A DNA stretch of 32,307 bases from an uncultured Acidobacteriota bacterium (GCA_964476985.1 CAYZDB010000002.1:1-32307); one strand, 5' to 3'. Shown: positions 6,411-17,955, counted from the stretch's first letter. A program made the numbers and translations. The notes: a model not told the origin generated them from the sequence alone.

Positions 6411-6503
6411 ATGAAGAACGACCACAATCGACGGCGCATCGAACGCGGCCACGCGTTCGGCCTGCTGCTGTTCCTCATGATCCTGCCCGTCTGCGCGTTC
6501 GCG
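6411..6503 (+). other. Predicted Sec signal peptide of the Rhs protein (AFA/VA cleavage); not a canonical lipobox
   Basis: A positively charged n-region (RRRIER) is followed by the hydrophobic core FGLLLFLMILPV and then CAFA-VAQ. LPVC does not fit the L-[AS]-[GA]-C lipobox. Confidence 0.6.
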
Positions 6504-9500
6504 GTCGCGCAGGAGTCACCGCCCCCTCCCGCGGCGCCGCCGGGGGGTGGAGAGGACCCTCCTGGCGGCGGCGGTACCGGTGGCGTGTCCTCCATCACGG
6601 ATCTCACCGTCTACGATCACCTCAGCCTCGTTGCGCGAGCGCCGGGAATCCCCGAGGGATCGATCTTCGCAGGATTCGAGAACTCCGAGTCGGTCCAGGC
6701 GTTCAGCGGGAACCTCCTCGTCACGCACCCGAGCAGCCCCTCGTTTCCACTCGACGGAGGCGGCAGCTTCAGCCTTTCGCGCAGCTACAACAGCTCGCGG
6801 ACCCTGGAGATCGCGAACAGGGGCGCCGACGATGTCTACAAGCGATTCGCGCACGGCCGAAGCTGGGTCGGATACGGTTGGACGATGCATCTGGGGCGGG
6901 TCTTCAAGCGCGCAAAGATGCCGGACCGCAAGGAGCAAGACCACCTGAATGAGCTCTACTGTTATCACGACCGGGAGTTCGTCTTCGAGGATGGGGCGGG
7001 TACGCAAACGGTGTTTAACGAGAAGGAGCCGGACCCGGTGCGGTCTGCCGTTCAAGAACGCCCGATTCTCAAGGTTCGGTTCTTTCGGAAGCCAGGACAG
7101 GAATGCGAGTTCGGAAGTCGCCGGCCGCTCTGGTGCGATACCCCCAACCGCTCGTCGCTGCCCGAATGCGACCACTTCGACAATGACTGCGAGACGACGA
7201 CGGACGGCACGGCCCACTATGAGGTCACGCTGGAAGATGGCTCGATCCTTCGGCTGGAGAAGCGGGTCGACGAAGTTACGAACGACCTGGGCTTCATCAA
7301 GAACGCCGACCGCAGCGGCTGGTACACCACGCGCATCACGTTCCTCTCCGGCGCGGCGCTTCGAGTGGCGTATCACGACAGCACGGCGTTTCCCGAAGCC
7401 ATCTACAAGGTGCAGTCGGAACGTGATCAGACAGTCACGATCCAAACGACTCTGTGCGCGTCCGACGCCCATTGCTGCGCACCCGGCGCAGCCTGCAGCG
7501 CCGGCTCGGGCCTTACGGGCCTCTTGAAGACCGTCACGGCAACGGGACCAGGCGGCCAGACGGTCACCTACGAATACTCATATGAAGCCATGTCTCTCAA
7601 CGATGTCGGCGGACCGACGACTGTTCCCGTGCTGCGGCAGGTCAAGCTACCGGTGGTCGGAGGACAGAGCGCCGGGTCGATCCAGTACACCTACCGACCC
7701 AGCTATCAGCCGGAGGGCGCCGGGCCGGGCGAGCCGGGGACGGGTCCGCTCCTCGAGCGCCTGATCTATCCGCTGAATGGCGAGGCGAAGTACGAATACG
7801 GCGCGTGGTACTGCGGTCCCAAGAAGTCCGGCGCACCGTCGGAAACCTACGAGTGCTATCAGCCCGGGTCGCGCCGGTGCTTTGGAGTGACCGGTCGCAC
7901 CCTCTTCCCCGCCGGCAGCGGTGGCACCGAACCACCGGCTCGCGCCGATTGGCGCTGGGACCGGGACATCTCCTACACGGGGCTCTGCCCGGCGAGCAGC
8001 GGTAACTCATGTCAACCCGCCTTCGCAGAGAACAACCGATTCGTGATGCGCGGTCCTGACGGACGGACGACAATCAGCGAGTTCGAGTCACCCGTTGCAT
8101 GCGGTTTGGGAATCAACAAACTCGTGGGACGCATCAAGGCGGAGGAGTCCTATGACGGCGATGGCACGGCAGTGGCCACCCGCCTGCGTCGTGTCACCCA
8201 CGCCTACATGTATCCGCTGGAGCAGGCCGTCGAGACGGAGTTCTACGACGGACCCTCGGCCTGCGACGATGGGGTGGCAGCCAGTCCCGCACGGATGCGC
8301 ACCGAGCGCTTCGAGACGAGCGAGTGGGGCGAGTGGAACCTGACGGTCGTGAGCGGCGACTACCTGCCGGCAGAGGTCAAGCGCCGGTCGTACGTCGCGC
8401 ACGACGATCCGAAGACCATGCCCCCGTCCCGGCTCGAGAAGCATGTCGTGGGCCGGTTCGGGCGGGCCTATGTGGAAGAAGGCCGTTTCCAAGATCCTGG
8501 ACGCTACGAAGTGATGTACTGGCACGAGGGAGATCTCGGCTACGGCGGTGAATACAAGGGCCGACTGCTGCAGGTGGCGGCCGTCGCGTCCTATCAGACC
8601 GTCGGAACGACCATCGACACGACGGCCAATCCTCCGGCCGTGCAGACACCGGAGCCCCCGAGCACTCCGGAATCGCCCCCGAACCTGCGTTCAGTGCTCA
8701 GTTACGACGCCTCGAAGGGCAATCTGGCCCAAGTCGTGTTTTCCGGAGGAGACTCGAACGCGACGTACACCGTCGACTACACCTGGGACCAGGCGATGGC
8801 CAAGACGATGAAGCTGACGGCCTTGACCTACAACAGCCGCGAGATCGTCCCCGATCGAGGAGCGGTCTCGGCAGCGATCGATCCGAACGGCCTCCGCACC
8901 GATTTCGGCTGGGACGCCCTGGGCCGGATCAAGAGCCTCACCCCGCCCGGACCCGAGTACGCGACGCGAGTGGCCTATCCGTCGTTGCTCGAGACCCGCG
9001 TCATCCGTTCGCCAGGCGCGGAAACCGCGCCCACGACCGATCCGGAGCAGGTGTACTCCGACCAGCGTTACGACGGTCTCGGCCGGACAATCGAGCGACG
9101 TAAGACGGTGCAGGGCTGGACGGCGCTGCAGGTCGTCCGGTATGACGCTCTCGGCCGCGAGATCTTCGTCTCCGAGTGGCTGACCCAGTCCGAATTCGAC
9201 ACGGCACCGAAGATCGTGTGGCAAGACGCCATGGATCCGGATGGAACGGGCCCACGAAGTTGGAGCCACAAGGTCGTCGACATCCCGACGAAGGACGGGC
9301 GCCCGTGGGGCACCGTGACCTACTACGGCGTGCCGTCGGCGACGGCACCCGACAACCCGCTTCGCGCCATCCCCGACGGCCTCGGCCGGGTCCGTCGCGT
9401 CGTTCAGGCCGACGGCTCGATCGTCGACACCGAGTACTGCGGCCCGCACGAGACGGTGACCGTGCACGGGGTGGACCGCAACGGCGATGGCGTTGCAGCG

Positions 9501-12500
9501 GAGACGTCCATCACGAAGTACTGGAAGGATGGGCTCGGCCGGCTGGTACTGGTCGACACCGACGTCCGGGCCGGAGGCGCGGCCGGGGACGGGGCCGACG
9601 CGGTCTACCGCTTCGACCCACGCGGCAAGGTCCGTGCCGTCCACCTAGTGTCGCAGCTTCCGGCGGACGCTTTCAACCAGTGGCGAAATCCGGACTGGAC
9701 TCCGGCGAATCCCCAGACGCGGACGTTCGAATACGACGCGCTCGGCCGGTTGCGGCGGGCCACGAACCCGGAGAAGGGTCTGGAGGAGTTCCATGCCTAC
9801 GACGTCTGGGGCAACCTCCTGGCCTGGACGGACGAGCTGGGACGCCAGCGCGGGTACCACTTCCGCAACACGTTCGACGGCGCAGGCCGACTGACGAAGA
9901 CGGAGCGCTGGCGGGCGGCCTACGGGACCGCGGGGACGCCAAGCGACGTGGAGCGTCTCGGCAGCAACGGGACCTTCGAGGGCACATGGCCCGGGGCCTG
10001 GGTCGAAGGGACGATCGACGGCTCGAACAACTTCAAGCCAGCGACGACCTCGTGGGAGGCCGTAGCCTACGGAGCAACGTCCTGCTTCAAGGCGCCCCCC
10101 GTCGGGGGCGGAATGCGCGGCCTGCACCTCGGCGGCACGGCGTGCACGTACGACGCCGCCGACCGCGGGCGGGAAGTGGCCCGAATCGCGGTCACGGGCG
10201 TGACCCGAGACGACCTGCTCAGTTTCAAGTACTGGCGGCAGGTGCGGGAGCAGAGCGGCGGCTCGCGCGACGCCCTCGAGGTCTGGGTGACGCGGCAGTC
10301 GCCGGACGGCGCTTCGATCCTGCCGCGGCGCGTGGTGTTCAGGATGTCGGAATCGCACGCATCCTACGCGAAGTGGATCCAGAGCCCCGGCGTCGCGCCG
10401 GGGGACTTCTACAGTCCCGCGGACTGGCCGGAAGGGACGACGCGCGATCTCTTCGTCTACTTCGTGTTCGAGAAGGGGGACGACGTCAGCTCCGGTCTCG
10501 GGCTGGGGGTGCTGATCGACGACGTCACGCTCGGCCGCAAGGGGGTGGAGACACTGGAACAGACCACCTACGACACCGACGTCTGCAGCGGGAGCGAGGG
10601 GGGCGACGCCTGCCTCGAGGGCGCCAGCACGGTCAATGCGTACAAGGACAAACCGGCCAAGGTGGCGTCGTACCAAGATGGCCGGAAGGTGCTGGAGCGG
10701 CGCTTCGTGTACCGCGGCCTGAACGGCCGCCTCTCGGGCGTGCGTACGCTGTTCGACTGGCGCGGGATGGCGCGGGACAATCATCCCGAGGACTGGACGA
10801 GCGTGGTCTGGAACGCGACCTGGAACAGCCACGGCCTGCCCGCCGACCTGGTGGCGCCTTATGCGGCGGCGGCCGGCAAGCGACGCTACGCGCAGCTCTA
10901 CTACGGCACGCTGCTGCGCCGGATCACGAGCGGCACGACGCCGCTGCTGGTCGCGGAGGACGGGCTGGACGGCGTCTACTACGACGCCGCCGGCGAGCCG
11001 ACCGAGTTGCGCTTCGCCAACGGTGCGGGGACGGCGATCGCGCGGGACGCCCAGCACCGGCCGCGGTCGTACGCGGTCTGGGGCTCGCCGACCACCGAGA
11101 GGCCCTTCTGGGCGAGCGGGAACTACACCTTCGACGGCGCGGGGAACATCCTCGCGATCGGGACGCAGCGCTTCGGCTACGACGGCGCCTCGCGGCTGAC
11201 GCACGCCGAGCTGCTGCCGCAGGCGCAATCCCCGACGACGCTGACCTTCGACGTCGTGAACTGGACCTACGATCTCTACGGGAACATGACCGGGCAGACG
11301 CTCGTCGGCAGCTCGGCGGCCACCCCCCCGCCCCTGACGTTCCAGCACACCTACGGTGCCGCCGGCCCCGGCAACCACAACCAGGTCACGACGTCCGGCT
11401 TCGCCTACGACGGCAACGGCAACACCCGTCGCTTCACCGGCCAACTCGGCCCCGCGGACGCCGTCGGCGCACTCTGGGACTCCCAGAACCGCCTGACGGC
11501 GTTCGTCCAGGGCGACCCCTGGGCCGGCAGCGCACCCGGCGAGACGTACGCCTACGACGCCGACGGCTACCGCTTCCTGCGGCTCTCGCTCGACAACACG
11601 GGCAAGGCGCTGCTGTCGGTGCGCGATGGCGAGGGCCGGACGCTGTCGGAGTTCGTGGACGAGCCGAGCGGCGGGCTGAAGCTGGTGCGGGACTTCGTCT
11701 ACGGGGTCGGCCAGCTGCTGGTCGAGCGCCAGGTGACCAGCGCGCCGCCGCAGATGCTGCTGGGCAGCCCGCTGGTCTCCGGCGGGAGCTATCACCTGAC
11801 GGTGACCGACGGCAGCGCGGCGCCGAGCTACGAGCTGGACATCCGCACCGCGTCCGGCTTCCAGAACCGCCTGACCGGCCTGCAGCGCGACGCGGCCCAG
11901 CAGCTCCACGTGCCGGAGAGCGCCTTGTCCCCCGGCGAGACGAACGTCCTGCGGCTGCGGGCCGAGGGCGAGCCGGGGACCGGCTACTCGGTGCCGGTCT
12001 CGCTGCTGTACGATCCGAGCGTGACGCCCTCCTCCCCGAACCAGATCCGCGCGCTGGGGGTCTCGCGCAACGGGACCGACCTGGTGCTGCGCTGGGCGCT
12101 CTTGACCGAGAACGGCAAGCAGACCAGGGTGAGCTTCCGGCGGGCCGACACCGGGGCGACCTACGTGCTGACGCCGCAAGCGCTGGCGTCGTCGATCAAG
12201 TCGTACACGCTCTCGTCGCAGGCTCTGGCCTCGCCGTGCGGGGACTTCCTGCTGAGCCAGGTGCTGCAGTCCAACGAGACCGGCCCGACCCCGCCGCTCC
12301 GGAACCCGAGCAGCCAGAGCGGGACGCAGGGGACGGAGATCGATCCCTGCGACGACCCGCCGCCCGACCCAGCTCCGGGCCCGCGCTTCACCAACGCCTA
12401 CCACCACCGCGATCACCTGGGCACGCTGCGCAACGTAACCGGCGACGGGGGCTACCTGGCCGCGGCCTACGACTGGTACCCGTACGGGACGCGGATGAGA

Positions 12501-13250
12501 ACGGGCCTCGCCGGCTCCGCCTCGGACAGCCGGCGGGTGTTCACGGGGCACGAGCGGGATCTGGCGACGGGGCTGGATTACATGATGGCGAGGTACTACG
12601 GACCAAGCCTCGCCCGCTTCCTGAGCACCGATCCCGGAGACGACACCTACCTCGACGCCCCGCAGAGCTGGAGCGAGTATTCCTACGTTCGCGATCGTCC
12701 CATCGGCGCGAACGACCCGACGGGCAGATTCACGGATTGGGGACTGACCCGCGAGTTCCGCGTGAGCCCGCCCGCGGTGGCGGCGACAGGTGGCACCCCC
12801 CAGGCCGCCTCTCAGACGATCGAGCAGATTGCCAAGTCGACGTCGTCGGTGGCGAATACGGTCGGTTGCGGAGCACTACTTGGGGCGGTCGTCGCGGCAA
12901 TCGTTCCGGGGGGACAAGCAGCGGTTCCTCCCCTCCTGTCAGTCGCTGGCACGATGGGGACGATCTCGCTCGGCAGTGATGTCGCCGCGGCCGCAGCGGT
13001 CCCGTCAACCGATAACGTCAACACCGTCATTGCCGATGTGGTGACGACAGCAGCGGTGGCGGGTGCGCTCAGGGGCGCGGAAGCACAGATGAGCCCCGGC
13101 TCCCGGGTGGCTGTCGAGACAGCTGCGATTCCTGCTGCGACGGCAGTGACGAGCATCGCGGAATCTGTGGAGGATGCCGTCGACGACCGAGGGAAGACCG
13201 ACCCTGCTGCTCCCCAGCGGGAACCGGCAGACAAGGAACAGAAGAAGTAG
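6411..13250 (+). CDS. Rhs/YD-repeat polymorphic toxin (2279 aa) with N-terminal Sec-type signal peptide, RHS core and a novel C-terminal toxin tip
   Basis: ATG 6411 directly follows AGGAGGGGAG (6401-6410). Signal-like N-terminus: MKNDHNRRRIERGHAFGLLLFLMILPVCAFA/VAQ. Shell-start motif: FSLSRSYNS...GYGWTMHLG. There are at least ten YD repeats, including FGWDALGR ~8904, YDGLGR ~9067, YDALGR ~9139, YEYDALGRL ~9727, FDGAGRL ~9880, YTFDGAGN ~11125, FGYDGASRL ~11175, FAYDGNGN ~11400 and YAYDADGY ~11551. RHS-associated core: YHHRDHLGTLR..WYPYGTR..FTGHERDLATGLDYMMARYY..YSYVRDRPIGANDPTGRF, ending at 12731. Confidence 0.95.
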   Translation: MKNDHNRRRIERGHAFGLLLFLMILPVCAFAVAQESPPPPAAPPGGGEDPPGGGGTGGVSSITDLTVYDHLSLVARAPGIPEGSIFAGFENSESVQAFSGNLLVTHPSSPSFPLDGGGSFSLSRSYNSSRTLEIANRGADDVYKRFAHGRSWVGYGWTMHLGRVFKRAKMPDRKEQDHLNELYCYHDREFVFEDGAGTQTVFNEKEPDPVRSAVQERPILKVRFFRKPGQECEFGSRRPLWCDTPNRSSLPECDHFDNDCETTTDGTAHYEVTLEDGSILRLEKRVDEVTNDLGFIKNADRSGWYTTRITFLSGAALRVAYHDSTAFPEAIYKVQSERDQTVTIQTTLCASDAHCCAPGAACSAGSGLTGLLKTVTATGPGGQTVTYEYSYEAMSLNDVGGPTTVPVLRQVKLPVVGGQSAGSIQYTYRPSYQPEGAGPGEPGTGPLLERLIYPLNGEAKYEYGAWYCGPKKSGAPSETYECYQPGSRRCFGVTGRTLFPAGSGGTEPPARADWRWDRDISYTGLCPASSGNSCQPAFAENNRFVMRGPDGRTTISEFESPVACGLGINKLVGRIKAEESYDGDGTAVATRLRRVTHAYMYPLEQAVETEFYDGPSACDDGVAASPARMRTERFETSEWGEWNLTVVSGDYLPAEVKRRSYVAHDDPKTMPPSRLEKHVVGRFGRAYVEEGRFQDPGRYEVMYWHEGDLGYGGEYKGRLLQVAAVASYQTVGTTIDTTANPPAVQTPEPPSTPESPPNLRSVLSYDASKGNLAQVVFSGGDSNATYTVDYTWDQAMAKTMKLTALTYNSREIVPDRGAVSAAIDPNGLRTDFGWDALGRIKSLTPPGPEYATRVAYPSLLETRVIRSPGAETAPTTDPEQVYSDQRYDGLGRTIERRKTVQGWTALQVVRYDALGREIFVSEWLTQSEFDTAPKIVWQDAMDPDGTGPRSWSHKVVDIPTKDGRPWGTVTYYGVPSATAPDNPLRAIPDGLGRVRRVVQADGSIVDTEYCGPHETVTVHGVDRNGDGVAAETSITKYWKDGLGRLVLVDTDVRAGGAAGDGADAVYRFDPRGKVRAVHLVSQLPADAFNQWRNPDWTPANPQTRTFEYDALGRLRRATNPEKGLEEFHAYDVWGNLLAWTDELGRQRGYHFRNTFDGAGRLTKTERWRAAYGTAGTPSDVERLGSNGTFEGTWPGAWVEGTIDGSNNFKPATTSWEAVAYGATSCFKAPPVGGGMRGLHLGGTACTYDAADRGREVARIAVTGVTRDDLLSFKYWRQVREQSGGSRDALEVWVTRQSPDGASILPRRVVFRMSESHASYAKWIQSPGVAPGDFYSPADWPEGTTRDLFVYFVFEKGDDVSSGLGLGVLIDDVTLGRKGVETLEQTTYDTDVCSGSEGGDACLEGASTVNAYKDKPAKVASYQDGRKVLERRFVYRGLNGRLSGVRTLFDWRGMARDNHPEDWTSVVWNATWNSHGLPADLVAPYAAAAGKRRYAQLYYGTLLRRITSGTTPLLVAEDGLDGVYYDAAGEPTELRFANGAGTAIARDAQHRPRSYAVWGSPTTERPFWASGNYTFDGAGNILAIGTQRFGYDGASRLTHAELLPQAQSPTTLTFDVVNWTYDLYGNMTGQTLVGSSAATPPPLTFQHTYGAAGPGNHNQVTTSGFAYDGNGNTRRFTGQLGPADAVGALWDSQNRLTAFVQGDPWAGSAPGETYAYDADGYRFLRLSLDNTGKALLSVRDGEGRTLSEFVDEPSGGLKLVRDFVYGVGQLLVERQVTSAPPQMLLGSPLVSGGSYHLTVTDGSAAPSYELDIRTASGFQNRLTGLQRDAAQQLHVPESALSPGETNVLRLRAEGEPGTGYSVPVSLLYDPSVTPSSPNQIRALGVSRNGTDLVLRWALLTENGKQTRVSFRRADTGATYVLTPQALASSIKSYTLSSQALASPCGDFLLSQVLQSNETGPTPPLRNPSSQSGTQGTEIDPCDDPPPDPAPGPRFTNAYHHRDHLGTLRNVTGDGGYLAAAYDWYPYGTRMRTGLAGSASDSRRVFTGHERDLATGLDYMMARYYGPSLARFLSTDPGDDTYLDAPQSWSEYSYVRDRPIGANDPTGRFTDWGLTREFRVSPPAVAATGGTPQAASQTIEQIAKSTSSVANTVGCGALLGAVVAAIVPGGQAAVPPLLSVAGTMGTISLGSDVAAAAAVPSTDNVNTVIADVVTTAAVAGALRGAEAQMSPGSRVAVETAAIPAATAVTSIAESVEDAVDDRGKTDPAAPQREPADKEQKK
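11549..12599 (+). repeat. Direct repeat copy A (inside main rhs), partner of 13656-14631
   Basis: Line-by-line alignment: offset 2107 before a 75-nt indel and 2032 after it. 11813-12499 is identical to 13845-14531 at all 687 positions. Confidence 0.95.
12732..13247 (+). other. Rhs C-terminal toxin tip 1 (172 aa), Ala/Val/Gly-rich, unassignable; candidate membrane-active toxin
   Basis: This is the sequence after DPTGRF: TDWGLTREF..VGCGALLGAVVAAIVPGGQAAVPPLLSVAGTMGTISLG..VIADVVTTAAVAGAL..VAVETAAIPAATAVTSIA..KEQKK. By my count it has 37 Ala and about 40% Ala+Val+Gly, with no His, no Tyr and one Cys. I see no recognisable nuclease, deaminase or ART motif. Confidence 0.6.
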
Positions 13251-13277
13251 CGTGATCATCGGCCGGAGTGCGACCAG

Positions 13278-13475
13278 ATGAGAGCTTGGATCCAGGTTCT
13301 TCTGCTCATTGCGCTTGGTGCTGCGGCCTTGTGCCTCGCCGCCCGCATTCGGGTACCTCCTGATGAGCCCGGGTCAGTGCTGTACCCGACCTATCGGTAC
13401 CTTAGGCTGATGTTGCTCGTCTCCGGGGGGGGTGCTCTCTTAGTGGCGGTGCGACTTGTGGCATTCCCTCCGTGA
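13278..13475 (+). CDS. 65-aa two-TM membrane protein; candidate cognate immunity protein for toxin tip 1
   Basis: ATG 13278 lies 9 nt after GGAG (13265-13268) and 27 nt after the rhs stop. Two hydrophobic helices: WIQVLLLIALGAAALCLAA and LRLMLLVSGGGALLVAVRLVAF. Position immediately 3' of a polymorphic toxin tip is the classical immunity location. Confidence 0.6.
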   Translation: MRAWIQVLLLIALGAAALCLAARIRVPPDEPGSVLYPTYRYLRLMLLVSGGGALLVAVRLVAFPP

Positions 13476-13518
13476 AGGCGACCAAAGAAGTTAGACGGCG
13501 TCAGGACGGTCAGCGATC

Positions 13519-15330
13519 TTGGCTTCGCTCGGTGACGCCGGCCATGTGCACCTCCGGCTTGCGTCCGGGCTACAGCGAACAGGCCGCATGTTCGATTTGA
13601 TTTCCGCCGGGCTGCGAATCCCACCGGCTTTGGCAAGGGGGCACCGTGCACAACCCGCCTACGACGCCGACGGCTACCGCTTCCTGCGGCTTTCGCTCGA
13701 CAAAGCCGGCAAGGCGCTGCTGTCGGTGCGCGACTGGGAGGGCCGGAGGCTGTCGGAGTTCGTGGACGAGCCCATCGGCGGGCTGAAGCTGGTGCAGGAC
13801 TTCGTCTGCGGGGTCGGCCAGCAGCTGATCGAGCGCCAGGTGACCAGCGCGGCGCCGAGCTACGAGCTGGACATCCGCACCGCGTCCGGCTTCCAGAACC
13901 GCCTGACCGGCCTGCAGCGCGACGCGGCCCAGCAGCTCCACGTGCCGGAGAGCGCCTTGTCCCCCGGCGAGACGAACGTCCTGCGGCTGCGGGCCGAGGG
14001 CGAGCCGGGGACCGGCTACTCGGTGCCGGTCTCGCTGCTGTACGATCCGAGCGTGACGCCCTCCTCCCCGAACCAGATCCGCGCGCTGGGGGTCTCGCGC
14101 AACGGGACCGACCTGGTGCTGCGCTGGGCGCTCTTGACCGAGAACGGCAAGCAGACCAGGGTGAGCTTCCGGCGGGCCGACACCGGGGCGACCTACGTGC
14201 TGACGCCGCAAGCGCTGGCGTCGTCGATCAAGTCGTACACGCTCTCGTCGCAGGCTCTGGCCTCGCCGTGCGGGGACTTCCTGCTGAGCCAGGTGCTGCA
14301 GTCCAACGAGACCGGCCCGACCCCGCCGCTCCGGAACCCGAGCAGCCAGAGCGGGACGCAGGGGACGGAGATCGATCCCTGCGACGACCCGCCGCCCGAC
14401 CCAGCTCCGGGCCCGCGCTTCACCAACGCCTACCACCACCGCGATCACCTGGGCACGCTGCGCAACGTAACCGGCGACGGGGGCTACCTGGCCGCGGCCT
14501 ACGACTGGTACCCGTACGGGACGCGGATGAGGACGGGGGTCGCCGGCTCCGCGTTGGACAGCCGGAGGGTGTTCACGGGGCACGAGCGGGACCTGGCGAC
14601 GGGGCTGGATTACATGATGGCGAGGTACTACTCGTCACCGGGGGGGACGTTCCTGTCGGTGGATCCCGGGGAGGACACGGATCTCGATGATCCCCAATCC
14701 TGGAATGCCTACAGCTACGTTCGTCGCGACCCGCTCGGTGGGAACGATCCTGACGGCAGATTCGGGAATCTCCTGGTCGGCTTCGTCGTCGGGGCGGCTG
14801 TCGAGGCCGGGTCGCAAGTCGTGGCGGGGATGTCGGAAGGAAAGGGCCTCATCGATTCCGTAAAGGGCATCGAGGGGAACAAGGTCCTCCTCAGTGCTGC
14901 GGTCGGAGGGGTGACTTCGGGCGTGAGCGCAATCCGCGCGATTGGATTGGCCGGCCGGCTCGCCGTGGAGGCCGCTGGCAATGTCGCCGAGGGAGCTCTG
15001 CATGCCCAAGTTGATGATGCCTCCTACGGGTCTGCGGAGGTCGTCGACGACGCCATCGTCGGAGCTGTAGCAGGAGTAGTCGGAGAGGGCACCGAACGCC
15101 TGACGCACGCCGTCGCACAACAGACGGACGCGGCGAAAAGCCTCGCCCACGACGCGAAGCGCCTGGAGAACATCGCCGACAAGGGGCGCCCGCGGGCGGC
15201 CCAGGAGTTGCGCGCACAGCAAGCCAAGGAGAAGGCGGCAAGCTACGGCTCGAAGCTCGCATCGGTCACCGGCGCAGCGGCGAGCAACCTAACGAGCGAG
15301 GCTGCAGGGAACAAGAAGAAACAACCGTGA
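13519..15330 (+). CDS. Orphan Rhs C-terminal cassette (last YD repeat + Ig-like insert + RHS core + alternative toxin tip); no signal peptide or shell, start uncertain, possibly silent
   Basis: The track ORF starts at TTG 13519, with an in-frame ATG at 13588; neither has a convincing SD. From 13656 it is homologous to 11549 onward of the main rhs (AYDADGYRFLRLSLD...). It has the same core, YHHRDHLGTLR..FTGHERDLATGLDYMMARYY, then diverges: SSPGGTFLSVDPGEDTDLDDPQSWNAYSYVRRDPLGGNDPDGRF ends at 14763. Confidence 0.7.
   Translation: MASLGDAGHVHLRLASGLQRTGRMFDLISAGLRIPPALARGHRAQPAYDADGYRFLRLSLDKAGKALLSVRDWEGRRLSEFVDEPIGGLKLVQDFVCGVGQQLIERQVTSAAPSYELDIRTASGFQNRLTGLQRDAAQQLHVPESALSPGETNVLRLRAEGEPGTGYSVPVSLLYDPSVTPSSPNQIRALGVSRNGTDLVLRWALLTENGKQTRVSFRRADTGATYVLTPQALASSIKSYTLSSQALASPCGDFLLSQVLQSNETGPTPPLRNPSSQSGTQGTEIDPCDDPPPDPAPGPRFTNAYHHRDHLGTLRNVTGDGGYLAAAYDWYPYGTRMRTGVAGSALDSRRVFTGHERDLATGLDYMMARYYSSPGGTFLSVDPGEDTDLDDPQSWNAYSYVRRDPLGGNDPDGRFGNLLVGFVVGAAVEAGSQVVAGMSEGKGLIDSVKGIEGNKVLLSAAVGGVTSGVSAIRAIGLAGRLAVEAAGNVAEGALHAQVDDASYGSAEVVDDAIVGAVAGVVGEGTERLTHAVAQQTDAAKSLAHDAKRLENIADKGRPRAAQELRAQQAKEKAASYGSKLASVTGAAASNLTSEAAGNKKKQP
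13656..14631 (+). repeat. Direct repeat copy B (5' part of the orphan cassette)
   Basis: Same alignment as copy A. The identical antisense track ORFs 12161..12394 and 14193..14426 independently confirm the 2032-nt offset. Confidence 0.95.
14764..15327 (+). other. Orphan toxin tip 2 (188 aa), glycine-zipper-like hydrophobic N-part plus charged helical tail; candidate membrane-active toxin
   Basis: GNLLVGFVVGAAVEAGSQVVAG..LLSAAVGGVTSGVSAIRAIGLAG..AIVGAVAGVVGEG.., then AKSLAHDAKRLENIADKGRPRAAQELRAQQAKEKAASYG. Small-xxx-small spacing recurs. There is no recognisable enzymatic motif and no sequence similarity to tip 1. Confidence 0.55.
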
Positions 15331-15986
15331 GGCGGTCTCGCGAGGTAGAAGGGCAAGGAGGCGACTCCTCGCAAGCGCGGCCGTGGCCCTTGCGTTGGCT
15401 CGGCTCGCTGCTGTTGGTGAGTGTGGTCCATATCGCAACACCGGCCCTCCTCGCGGAGGCGGGCTCTGCGGAATACGCACGGAGTCGCGATCAGCTGTTC
15501 GTTGTGTGCTTCATCGCATTCCTCCTATTCATCGTTCTCGTCTCATACCTACGGGGGCGAAGACGCGAGTTCTCGCAAACGCGGCGGTGGGACCTGCGCT
15601 GGATCGGCCCACTGCTGCTGGCGGGTTTGGTTTACCTCGCGACAAGGGCGCATCTCGCGGAGGCGGGATCCGCGGATTACGCCCGACGTCACGGCCGGCT
15701 CTTCACAGTGTGTCTGCTCGCGTTTCTCCTATTCGTAGTCCGAGTCAGTACTCGCCCGGCCCCCTCGTTGATCAAGGCGGCTCGTAGCGCCGACCAGAAG
15801 TCGGAGTACATCCGCGGTGGGTGGATGTCGATCGACCTGGCCTTGCTCCTGTCTGCGGCCGCGGCAGTATTCGTGCTGGATTGGAGTGGCTGGCGCGACT
15901 ATCTCGTACAGATCGGCGTGGTCTCGGCGCTCATAATTGTTCGCATCGTTGTCAGTCTCGTCCAACGGGCGTTGGGAAAGAAGTGA
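15327..15986 (+). CDS. 219-aa, about 6-TM membrane protein with internal tandem duplication; candidate immunity protein for orphan tip 2
   Basis: GTG 15327 overlaps the orphan stop (GTGA). Hydrophobic helices: WLGSLLLVSVVHIATPALLA, LFVVCFIAFLLFIVLVSYL, WIGPLLLAGLVYLATRAHLA, LFTVCLLAFLLFVVRVS, IDLALLLSAAAAVFVLDW, IGVVSALIIVRIVVSLV. A sampled block is low in GC (15481-15540: 31/60). The start codon is uncertain. Confidence 0.65.
   Translation: MRRSREVEGQGGDSSQARPWPLRWLGSLLLVSVVHIATPALLAEAGSAEYARSRDQLFVVCFIAFLLFIVLVSYLRGRRREFSQTRRWDLRWIGPLLLAGLVYLATRAHLAEAGSADYARRHGRLFTVCLLAFLLFVVRVSTRPAPSLIKAARSADQKSEYIRGGWMSIDLALLLSAAAAVFVLDWSGWRDYLVQIGVVSALIIVRIVVSLVQRALGKK
15378..15785 (+). repeat. Tandem 204-nt (68-codon) duplication inside the candidate immunity gene
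   Basis: Unit 1: RPWPLRWLGSLLLVSVVHIATPALLAEAGSAEYARSRDQLFVVCFIAFLLFIVLVS. Unit 2: RRWDLRWIGPLLLAGLVYLATRAHLAEAGSADYARRHGRLFTVCLLAFLLFVVRVS. The Trp codons sit at 15384 and 15588. Similarity is visible at DNA level too (ctcgcggaggcgggctctgcggaatacgc vs ctcgcggaggcgggatccgcggattacgc). Confidence 0.85.
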
Positions 15987-16083
15987 CCGCACACGGCGTG
16001 GTTCGCACGAGGTTGCCGGCCAGGCAGAGTGCGGCGGGGCGAAGTGGCGTTGAAGGCCCCGCGGACGCCATCGGCGGGCCGGG

Positions 16084-16542
16084 TCAGGAGCGCTTGCGAC
16101 TTCGCTCCAGCGCCCGAACGTCGGCAAGATCCTGCGCGCGCGCAGTGGCCCGCTTGGCTGCGAGCAGGTCGTCGAGGCCGATGATCTCGACCGGGACGTC
16201 CGCCCACCGCGCCTGGAGACGCCGCTCCCAGGCCGCCGGGAAGTCGACTCCCGGGATCGTGCGGAAGATCTCGACCCGAACGGGTGCGGCGCCCATCCAC
16301 ACGATGTCATTCGGCCCGGCACTCTGGAGTTCTGCGAGTGCGGCAGCCGGCGCGCCGAAGGCCCGGAGTGCCGCGAGAACGCGGGAGAGATTCGACGGCT
16401 CCTCGCCGATCCAGAGGCCGAGGTCTTTCGTGAAGCGCGGGCGGCCGTGGAACGCGACGGCGTAGCCGCCCACGACGAGGTACTCAGCGTTCGCCGCGGC
16501 GAGTGCCGAAAAGAGATCTCTCAAGTCGGGGTGGAGGTCCAT
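16084..16542 (-). CDS. Nucleotidyltransferase-fold (MNT/AbiEii-like, DUF-type) protein, candidate toxin-antitoxin-like component
   Basis: MDLHPDLRDLFSALAAANAEYLVVGGYAVAFHGRPRFTKDLGLWI carries the hhGG-x(n)-D-x-[DE] NTase signature region, but reads D-L-G where relatives as I recall them read D-x-D. GC3 bias supports the frame. Confidence 0.75.
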   Translation of the reverse strand: MDLHPDLRDLFSALAAANAEYLVVGGYAVAFHGRPRFTKDLGLWIGEEPSNLSRVLAALRAFGAPAAALAELQSAGPNDIVWMGAAPVRVEIFRTIPGVDFPAAWERRLQARWADVPVEIIGLDDLLAAKRATARAQDLADVRALERSRKRS

Positions 16543-16714
16543 CGTTGCCCTCGATTGCCCACGCCTCTTCGACCAACTGCCACGCGGCGGCCAGCCGCAT
16601 CTCGGGTGGCGCGGCGAGCCAGAACGCGATCTCCGCGTCGAGAGCCTCGGCCCCGTGGCGGACGCGCCCCGCGGTCCAGCCCGGGCGCGTTGCAGGGTTC
16701 CGTTCGATCGTCAT
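16484..16714 (-). CDS. 76-aa small protein, upstream partner of the NTase-fold gene (antitoxin-like)
   Basis: ATG is at 16714. GC3 is high until the 59-nt overlap with the downstream gene. The tail ..AAWQLVEEAWAIEG..PRLERSLFGTRRGER resembles the C-terminal RL[EQ]R-type tail of small partner proteins found upstream of such NTase genes. That is recollection, not verified. Confidence 0.5.
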   Translation of the reverse strand: MTIERNPATRPGWTAGRVRHGAEALDAEIAFWLAAPPEMRLAAAWQLVEEAWAIEGNDGPPPRLERSLFGTRRGER

Positions 16715-16803
16715 GCACTGATTCTAGCAGAGGCCCGGCGAGAAGACGGCTGCCACCTGGCTGCGCGAAACCCTGAGCGTCTCCGACCCACGGCGCCACG
16801 GGA

Positions 16804-17955
16804 TTAGCGCAGCCGCTCCCCGTCGATCCGGAACCTCGCCACCCGGTCCTCGAGCACGGTCACGCCGATCCCCGGCCCGTGCGGCACCTCGATGAAGCCG
16901 TCCGCGCCCAGCACCACCGGCGGCTCGACCAGGTCTTCGTGGAAGTAGCGGCGGGTCTCCGAGGTGTCTCCCGGCAGCATGAATCCCGGCACCGTCTGCA
17001 GGTGGATGTTGACCGCCCGGCCGATCCCGGTCTCGTCCATGCCGCCCGACCAGGCCGGGGCCCCGCGCGCGGCGCAGGCCGCGGCGATCCGGACCGACTC
17101 CAGGAGCCCCCCGACCCGCCCCTGCTTGATGTTGACGATCCGGCAGGCCCCCAGCTCGAGCGCGGCGCAGGCGTCGTCCAGCGAGTGGATCGACTCGTCG
17201 AGGCAGAGCGGGGTCGCCAGGTGCCGCTGCAGCGTCGCGTGCTGCACGATGTCGGCGTACGACAGCGGCTGCTCGATCATCGTCAGCCCGAAGGGGTCGA
17301 GCTGCGCCAGGTGGTCGGCGTCGGCCAGGCTGTAGTCGCCGTTGGCGTCGGCCATCAGCTGGATCTCCGGGAAGCGCTCGCGCACGGCGCGCACCCACTC
17401 CACGTCGCGGCCGCGCATGATCTTGATCTTGACCCGGTGGTAGCGGTGCCGGACCGCCTCGTCGACGGCGGCCAGCAGCGCCTCGACCGAGTCCTGCAGC
17501 CCGATGCTGATCCCCGACGGGATCGGCTTGCGGGGCGCGCCGAGCAGCTCGTGGAGCGGCTGGCCGGCGCGCTTCGCGAGCAGGTCGAGCAGCGCGTTCT
17601 CGATCGTCGCCTTGGCCATCCCGTGGCCGCGCACCCGGCGGAACCGCGCCGCGAGCGCCCCGACCGTCAGCCCCGGCTCGACGCAGGGCAGCAGGAAGTC
17701 GCGGAGGATGTGCCGCGCGGTGGTGGTCGTCTCGCTGGCGTAGTACGGGTCCGGATCGGCGACGCACTCCCCCCAGCCGACGAGGCCGCCGGCCTCGACC
17801 CGCAGCAGCACCGCCTCCTTGCAGGTCCAGGTGGCGACGCTGGTGCCGAACGGGCTGACGAAGGGGAGGCGCACCACGATCACGTCGACGCGGTCGAGCG
17901 CGGGGATCTCGAGCGCCTCGATCCGGTCGAGCGGCGACGGGGACGGCGGCGTCAT
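16804..17955 (-). CDS. menC: o-Succinylbenzoate synthase / N-acylamino-acid racemase family enzyme (enolase superfamily, MLE subgroup)
   Basis: KxK motif in RVKIKIMRG. Metal ligand contexts: LMADANGDY, MIEQPL, LCLDESI. Second catalytic Lys in IVNIKQGRVGG. No other men genes are in the window, so racemase versus OSBS remains open. Confidence 0.8.
   Translation of the reverse strand: MTPPSPSPLDRIEALEIPALDRVDVIVVRLPFVSPFGTSVATWTCKEAVLLRVEAGGLVGWGECVADPDPYYASETTTTARHILRDFLLPCVEPGLTVGALAARFRRVRGHGMAKATIENALLDLLAKRAGQPLHELLGAPRKPIPSGISIGLQDSVEALLAAVDEAVRHRYHRVKIKIMRGRDVEWVRAVRERFPEIQLMADANGDYSLADADHLAQLDPFGLTMIEQPLSYADIVQHATLQRHLATPLCLDESIHSLDDACAALELGACRIVNIKQGRVGGLLESVRIAAACAARGAPAWSGGMDETGIGRAVNIHLQTVPGFMLPGDTSETRRYFHEDLVEPPVVLGADGFIEVPHGPGIGVTVLEDRVARFRIDGERLR

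Follow-up and report, generated by a model that had tools for sequence, protein, structure and literature searches.

A contig of 32,307 nucleotides (nt) from an uncultured Acidobacteriota bacterium (GCA_964476985.1, CAYZDB010000002.1:1-32307) carries a full-length rhs gene followed, in the same orientation, by a 5'-truncated rhs fragment that ends in a different C-terminal tip. We are quite confident that this locus is a genuine main-plus-orphan Rhs polymorphic-toxin array, and that the repeat of about 1 kb shared by its two genes is a conserved homology arm kept alike by concerted evolution. The window analysed here is this whole contig (C2), in which all positions are counted; features lie on the plus strand unless the other strand is named. 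The genome is a bin from a soil Acidobacteriota bacterium, consisting of 516 contigs and 3.25 Mb, with 88% completeness and a contamination estimate of 2.9%.

The main rhs gene, its orphan and their shared repeat

The main rhs gene (6411-13250) has 2279 codons when read from the ATG at 6411, its likely start, in a frame that is open from 6342. In order, it encodes a Sec-type signal peptide, a YD/RHS shell, a tandem FN3-like insert, an Rhs-associated core and a first tip (tip 1). The N-terminus follows the typical signal peptide pattern, with a basic stretch and then a hydrophobic h-region at residues 12-37 ending in AFA. RHS repeats were detected with PF05593 (E=5e-14, 52.7 bits with a cut-off of 22), the match to TIGR01643 being weak. 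The Rhs-associated core was found with TIGR03696 at residues 2046-2128 (52.6 bits with a cut-off of 32.5), and the core region matches TccC3, YenC2 and the Rhs core of a type VI secretion system (T6SS) in the PDB by sequence. The TIGR03696 match ends in NDPTG (12711-12725), the predicted DPxG self-cleavage motif, behind which tip 1 extends over 174 amino acids (aa; 12726-13247); the core end and tip 1 together occupy 12600-13250.

The FN3-like pair sits between the last YD repeat and the core (11738-12400). Values of the predicted local distance difference test (pLDDT) in the AlphaFold model are mostly 80-96 over this insert, and Foldseek matched it to tandem FN3 structures at E of about 2e-6. 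The insert is conserved in the family, with 33% mean identity among 20 relatives; in solved Rhs/TcC structures no sequence match to it was found, only the core part being matched. Among the 20 full-length relatives the core reaches 47% mean identity and the tips are alike in just 2 of the 190 pairs, a pattern consistent with a hypervariable C-terminal tip.

Downstream of tip 1 there is a small gene for immunity candidate 1 (13278-13475; 65 aa, two hydrophobic segments), and then the orphan rhs-CT cassette (13656-15330), a 5'-truncated core fragment homologous to the main gene and joined to a different tip. The orphan frame is open over 13495-15330; taken as 13519-15330, this downstream frame carries the same Rhs-associated core domain (TIGR03696 at orphan residues 331-413), ending in NDPDG. 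Tip 2 (14758-15327, 190 aa) follows this motif. Immunity candidate 2 (15327-15986; 219 aa, 5-6 hydrophobic segments) begins with a GTG that runs into the stop codon of tip 2 (GTGA). Both genes were found to contain RHS repeats and the Rhs-associated core, which bears out the reading as main rhs gene and orphan in a preliminary description of this contig. We regard the tips as candidate toxins and the small membrane proteins as candidate immunity factors. When compared with the 20 full-length relatives, the orphan retains 18 of 18 invariant and 24 of 25 near-invariant residues of core and insert; with its frame open as well, it appears to be a still usable cassette.

A repeat search and a position-by-position comparison reproduced exactly the 687-nt identity that the preliminary description had noted by eye: as assembled, 11813-12499 equals 13845-14531 at 687 of 687 positions, at an offset of 2032. 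This exact tract codes for most of the two tandem FN3-like domains and the first 30 or so residues of the Rhs-associated core. On its 3' side, local alignment of 12500-12599 with 14532-14631, the beginning of an orphan segment (14532-15330) that continues through the core end into tip 2, gave 93 of 100 identical positions. As described earlier, this flank is diverged homologous sequence; it ends at 12599, past which main gene and orphan are 43-55% identical. Tract and 3' flank together make up 787 nt at 99.1% identity as assembled. On the 5' side, 11549-11737 in the main gene, covering the last YD repeats, matches the orphan core fragment 13656-13844 at 175 of 189 positions (92.6%), at an offset of 2107. 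The earlier description had listed scattered substitutions in this flank and had given its two sides with unequal lengths (11549-11812 and 13656-13844), but the reason, a 75-nt indel, had gone unnamed. These 75 nt (main 11738-11812, 25 codons) are missing from the orphan copy, and a 7-nt microhomology, CAGCGCG, borders the deletion. The homologous region as a whole measures 1051 nt on the main side and 976 nt on the orphan side.

The two flanks differ in the kind of change they have accumulated. Main and orphan are separated by nine replacements and three synonymous differences in the 5' flank, among them Gly to Trp and Tyr to Cys, compared with two replacements and five synonymous differences in the 3' flank. 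The part that a crossover would use therefore seems to be constrained, and the part that it would discard not. The orphan 5' core fragment is also the longest branch among four compared copies, and it seems to be a remnant in decay.

Outside the tract, identical stretches shared by the copies reach no more than 39 nt, and at the flank identity of about 93% the chance of a mismatch-free run of 687 nt is about 0.93^687, or roughly 1e-22. Purifying selection was considered as a source of the tract identity and rejected because the flanks, which have the same GC content at third codon positions (GC3), show 3-5 synonymous differences in 33-63 codons, as opposed to none across the 229 tract codons. 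No further copy of the exact tract was found elsewhere in this genome, the only related pieces being a 128-nt relic at 93% identity (contig C109) and a 66% paralogue (C244).

In silico, joining main 12499 to orphan 14532 removes exactly the 2032 nt predicted earlier for a single crossover within the tract, and it yields an open fusion of 2295 codons from the ATG at 6411. The earlier frame arithmetic, according to which homologous positions share their codon phase and the shell would be fused in frame to tip 2, is thereby confirmed. According to our proposal, each tip cassette would carry a 5' homology arm made up of the last YD repeats, the FN3-like insert and the start of the Rhs-associated core, and the very high identity of the arm would reflect concerted evolution, be it through gene conversion or through the recombination that brought in the present tip 1 cassette, two routes that the data do not tell apart. 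RecA-dependent recombination becomes more frequent with repeat length and identity. Being long and alike enough and in the same codon phase, the arm would be a competent substrate for RecA-type homologous recombination, and a crossover would equip the full-length secreted shell with tip 2. If this were a single intramolecular event, deployment of tip 2 would come with deletion of the partner gene of tip 1, a loss that unequal sister-chromosome exchange or non-reciprocal conversion would avoid. Recent conversion, like switching in the population to which this genome belongs, is a matter of inference.

Related arrays and the origin of the repeat identity

The arm protein was searched against 60 related genomes and matched in 34 of them, many having a full-length frame of about 2300 aa followed by frames of 550-1000 aa. 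At least six further main/orphan arrays were identified in four related genomes. For the repeats of these arrays, as obtained by self-comparison of the fetched sequences, we found 1181 nt at 97.6% and 1063 nt at 95.1% in G002 C40, 918 nt at 94.2% in G002 C33, 939 nt at 93.0% in G008 C37, 962 nt at 97.8% in G015 C8 and 2329 nt at 98.8% in G015 C139, the last including an exact run of 2244 nt. The arrays in G002 (C40, C33, C30), G008 (C37) and G015 (C139, C8) belong to the same family (43-60% over the arm) and have the same layout. They hold up to four or five orphans, in contrast to the single orphan here, whose exact tract is, as assembled, of intermediate length. The array on G002 C40 has at least four cassettes; in a mosaic test on the four copies of this long-read array, each of the three possible partitions was backed (by 10, 7 and 5 sites), and clustering was not significant (p=0.12). 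Main/orphan repeats of 0.8-2.3 kb at 91-99% identity are thus routine in related Acidobacteriota. The earlier judgement of an unusually long and pristine repeat is right if Salmonella LT2 (522 bp, 95%) is the yardstick, but not against these relatives, given their range of lengths and identities and the 2244-nt exact run.

A closer comparison is with G002, a bin of the Microflora Danica project and a member of the same genus; the project used Nanopore long reads (PMC12313526). Contig C30 of G002 holds the orthologous array, laid out in the same way. Its main core and ours share 94-96% identity precisely as far as position 12599 and 44%, the random level, beyond it; unrelated sequence replaces tip 1 and its partner. 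The orphan is in place: it keeps the 75 nt missing here, and tip 2 and immunity candidate 2 are retained at 87-89%. The preliminary description had proposed to compare related genomes for alternative arrangements, and this one has a different main tip from 12600 on. Since the G002 orphan retains the 75 nt, the deletion in our orphan is derived. With a different main tip at the same breakpoint and the same orphan, an exchange of the main tip has therefore taken place between two species of one genus, with the orphan left where it was. The array on G002 C30 is full of frame breaks, which could be Nanopore indels or real decay. Just downstream of tip 2 and immunity candidate 2, a gene for an rve integrase of insertion sequence type lies in G002 C30 (L027 6011-6970) and in a metagenome contig (L042 1488-2792).

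The breakpoint with respect to the G002 main gene coincides with the end of main/orphan homology, 12599/12600, and this comparison supports tip turnover at that position. Since the cassette boundary precedes the DPxG motif by 42 codons, each tip would bring along the final stretch of the core, which shares the tip's lower GC3. GC3 is 0.90-1.0 in the core compared with 0.64-0.78 in tips and immunity candidates, and over 12600-13250 it falls to 0.68-0.78. Lower values in the tips and small genes are as expected if these are exchangeable cassettes.

Several points weigh against reading the locus as an array kept alike by concerted evolution. Full-length relatives with tip 2 on a shell were sought in the protein database, and the best match was only 60% identical. 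Two exact-pattern scans of metagenome contigs for sequence linked to tip 2 came back empty, although two JGI contigs with a 91% relative of tip 2 exist; these begin only a little way into tip 2, some 270 nt beyond the exact tract, and are therefore silent on the upstream arrangement. No homologue of tip 1 was found in 22 family genomes or among 8000 scored candidates, and profile searches gave no homologue or family match for immunity candidates 1 and 2. The toxin or immunity roles of tip 1 and both candidates are read from position and hydrophobicity, and with a simple deletion the cell would lose the immunity candidate of tip 1. As to the tract, its exact identity is the output of an assembly graph for a shared edge and therefore no independent evidence, which leaves recent conversion unproven; in a graph assembly with k=55, 100% is indistinguishable from, for example, 98-99%.

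This last point leads to the explanation that best survives besides our own. It is a real possibility, somewhat short of probable, that the identity is a product of assembly, the copies being perhaps 97-99.9% alike, merged to one edge and written twice. The genome contains 80 oriented contig-end overlaps of exactly 55 nt and hardly any of another length, which indicates a de Bruijn graph assembly with a final k of 55; it also holds 2255 N. With identical runs of at most 39 nt outside the tract, shorter than k, and one run of 687 nt inside it, the tract behaves as a single shared graph edge. In such a graph it would be entered from two sides and left on two; the contig could show it twice only if the assembler walked a loop, and one edge would then have been printed both times. 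Where differences are sparse and have at least 55 identical bases on either side, they would form bulges, of the kind that metagenome graph assemblers collapse, and could have been lost here. Moreover, the best main/orphan repeat of the long-read genome from the same genus reaches 97.6% identity, and its exact runs do not exceed 261 nt. On the other hand, copies diverged by 7%, like the flanks, could not merge into one edge; the tract must therefore be far more alike than the flanks, its identity is certainly high, and true identity is possible too. The earlier conclusion from perfect identity to recent gene conversion is not sustained, since a k=55 assembler can print such identity even where sparse differences exist. 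More generally, recent gene conversion cannot be argued from an exact repeat that exceeds k if it comes from a short-read graph assembly.

The main-orphan topology is safer than the tract identity. From where the tract ends, the unique segment 12600-13655 takes a path through the diverged, deleted core fragment and back into the tract, and the sister genome has the same order. It is accordingly very improbable that a tip 1 strain and a tip 2 strain were mis-joined into a tandem layout that no single genome has: strains may be mixed in metagenome bins, and the contamination estimate given above leaves some room for it, but some molecule must have both the 75-nt-deleted fragment and the tract downstream of tip 1, and the same-genus genome was assembled independently.

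We consider it possible, if rather unlikely, that the identity is the footprint of a recent cassette insertion and not of gene conversion. By one route, a circular or linear piece consisting of a core fragment, tip 1, immunity candidate 1 and the spacer would have joined an ancestral main gene with tip 2 in a Campbell-type event, duplicating the arm; by another, two crossovers, in the main core and in the orphan core fragment, would have replaced an older cassette. The sister genome fits such an insertion, as its different main tip and same orphan define a swapped unit from 12600 to about 13655, exactly between the homology arms. Tip 1, immunity candidate 1 and the spacer are without counterpart in the 22 family genomes, and the lower GC3 of the tips relative to the core points the same way. 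However, identity between an incoming and a resident arm would require a donor of nearly the same strain, and the tract, at 95.3% identity to the G002 main gene and 93.2% to the G002 orphan, does not point to one direction.

A stronger version of concerted evolution would be that, across this family of Acidobacteriota, the long and nearly identical arms linking a Sec-secreted, T6SS-independent Rhs gene with its silent cassette arrays are actively maintained by frequent non-reciprocal conversion, as a programmed switching like pilin antigenic variation. We regard this as improbable. If true, it would change the deployed toxin without loss of immunity genes; the alternative is that the arms are a passive residue of past insertions.

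Tips, partner genes and genome context

Ala, Gly and Val abound in both tips; in tip 1, which is Ala/Val/Thr/Gly-rich, one segment is strongly hydrophobic. Kinship between the two is not demonstrable, as their local alignment score of 72 falls inside the range of shuffled sequences (mean 47, maximum 80). At E<=1e-3, 69 representatives were found for the uncharacterised Rhs C-terminal family, about 170 aa long, to which tip 2 belongs; the family shows a conserved GRPRxAQ motif and is covered by no Pfam model. Its members end RHS-repeat proteins of 2068-2500 aa (three representatives) and many short proteins. The AlphaFold model of tip 2 is all-helical; it was not taken to a fold search because its mean pLDDT is only 61.

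Immunity candidate 2 adjoins tip 2 in G002 and in two metagenome contigs, at 87-89% nt identity. It holds an internal tandem duplication of a 68-residue two-helix unit (15351-15746, 72% nt identity), a unit about as long as the whole 65-residue immunity candidate 1. All three tips of this genome have Lys-rich tails, KEQKK (13230-13250), NKKKQP (15307-15330) and KLKEKKP (C244:1400-1433), and the purine-rich codons of these tails lie just upstream of the start of the partner gene. The Lys-rich ends could serve translational coupling or mark a common cassette end.

Between immunity candidate 1 and the orphan core fragment we found a terminator-like hairpin with a T-rich tail (13576-13604), a weak consensus match; there are four such sites, compared with 1.7 +/- 1.4 in shuffled sequences. 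A scan of 13000-16900 for sigma-70-like promoters gave no site, a result that is uninformative for Acidobacteriota.

The genes flanking the rhs locus are housekeeping genes. On the minus strand, an open reading frame with a strong coding signature (16084-16542, GC3 0.8-0.9) lies at the downstream edge of the island. Neither TssC (PF05943) nor PAAR (PF05488) was found in the 88%-complete genome, which together with the Sec-like N-terminus argues against a T6SS-delivered effector.

A second rhs locus of this genome is split over C244:3-1433 and C30:13855-15834. Contig C244 begins where the homologous exact tract does (50% aa identity) and ends in a tip with a metallopeptidase-type motif, HEVGH; a small protein with a signal anchor follows. 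An N-terminal rhs paralogue of 34% identity lies at the end of C30 in this bin. At C109:3934-4095 there is a lone 54-codon relic of the FN3-like insert, 93% identical to the tract in nt and 78% in aa, with no other rhs sequence nearby.

Comparison with known systems

In Salmonella Typhimurium LT2, rhs-main shares 522 bp of homology with rhs-CT-orphan at 95% identity (Koskiniemi et al. 2014, PMC3967940). Recombinants were observed there; they arose after a duplication of the locus, and rhsI-main was kept in them because of this preceding duplication (PMC3967940). As in LT2, what follows the full-length rhs gene in our locus is a same-orientation core fragment that is 5'-truncated and has, besides a different tip, an immunity gene of its own (here a candidate), and the direct repeat permits an in-frame fusion of the shell to the orphan tip. 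The homology is longer in our case, with 976-1051 nt, of which 787 nt are 99% identical as assembled. Two further differences are that the Salmonella recombinants were seen, whereas the present locus is known from sequence alone, and that the Salmonella protein is linked to a T6SS, whereas the protein encoded here carries a Sec-type signal peptide and comes from an 88%-complete genome that yielded neither TssC nor PAAR.

The locus is hence a clear main/orphan Rhs array outside the Proteobacteria, on a protein with a predicted Sec signal and in a genome without a detected T6SS, and such arrays are common in a family of soil Acidobacteriota. Both tips and their membrane-protein partners are uncharacterised candidates for membrane-acting toxin/immunity pairs, tip 2 defining a recurrent family that Pfam does not cover.

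In the core/core-extension displacement model for rhs genes of Enterobacteria and in CdiA-CT/CdiI orphan arrays, reportedly set out by Poole et al. 2011, displaced tips and their immunity genes are said to accumulate downstream as orphans. Our array resembles this model in that a GC-rich conserved core is joined to variable tips of lower GC. Unlike in the model, nucleotide homology stops here 42 codons before the DPxG motif, so that the core end would travel with the tip, and the arm includes the tandem FN3-like insert that is unmatched by sequence in solved Rhs/TcC structures. With these features of its own, the locus is a real and ordinary instance of the main/orphan layout for tip swapping that is common in its relatives.

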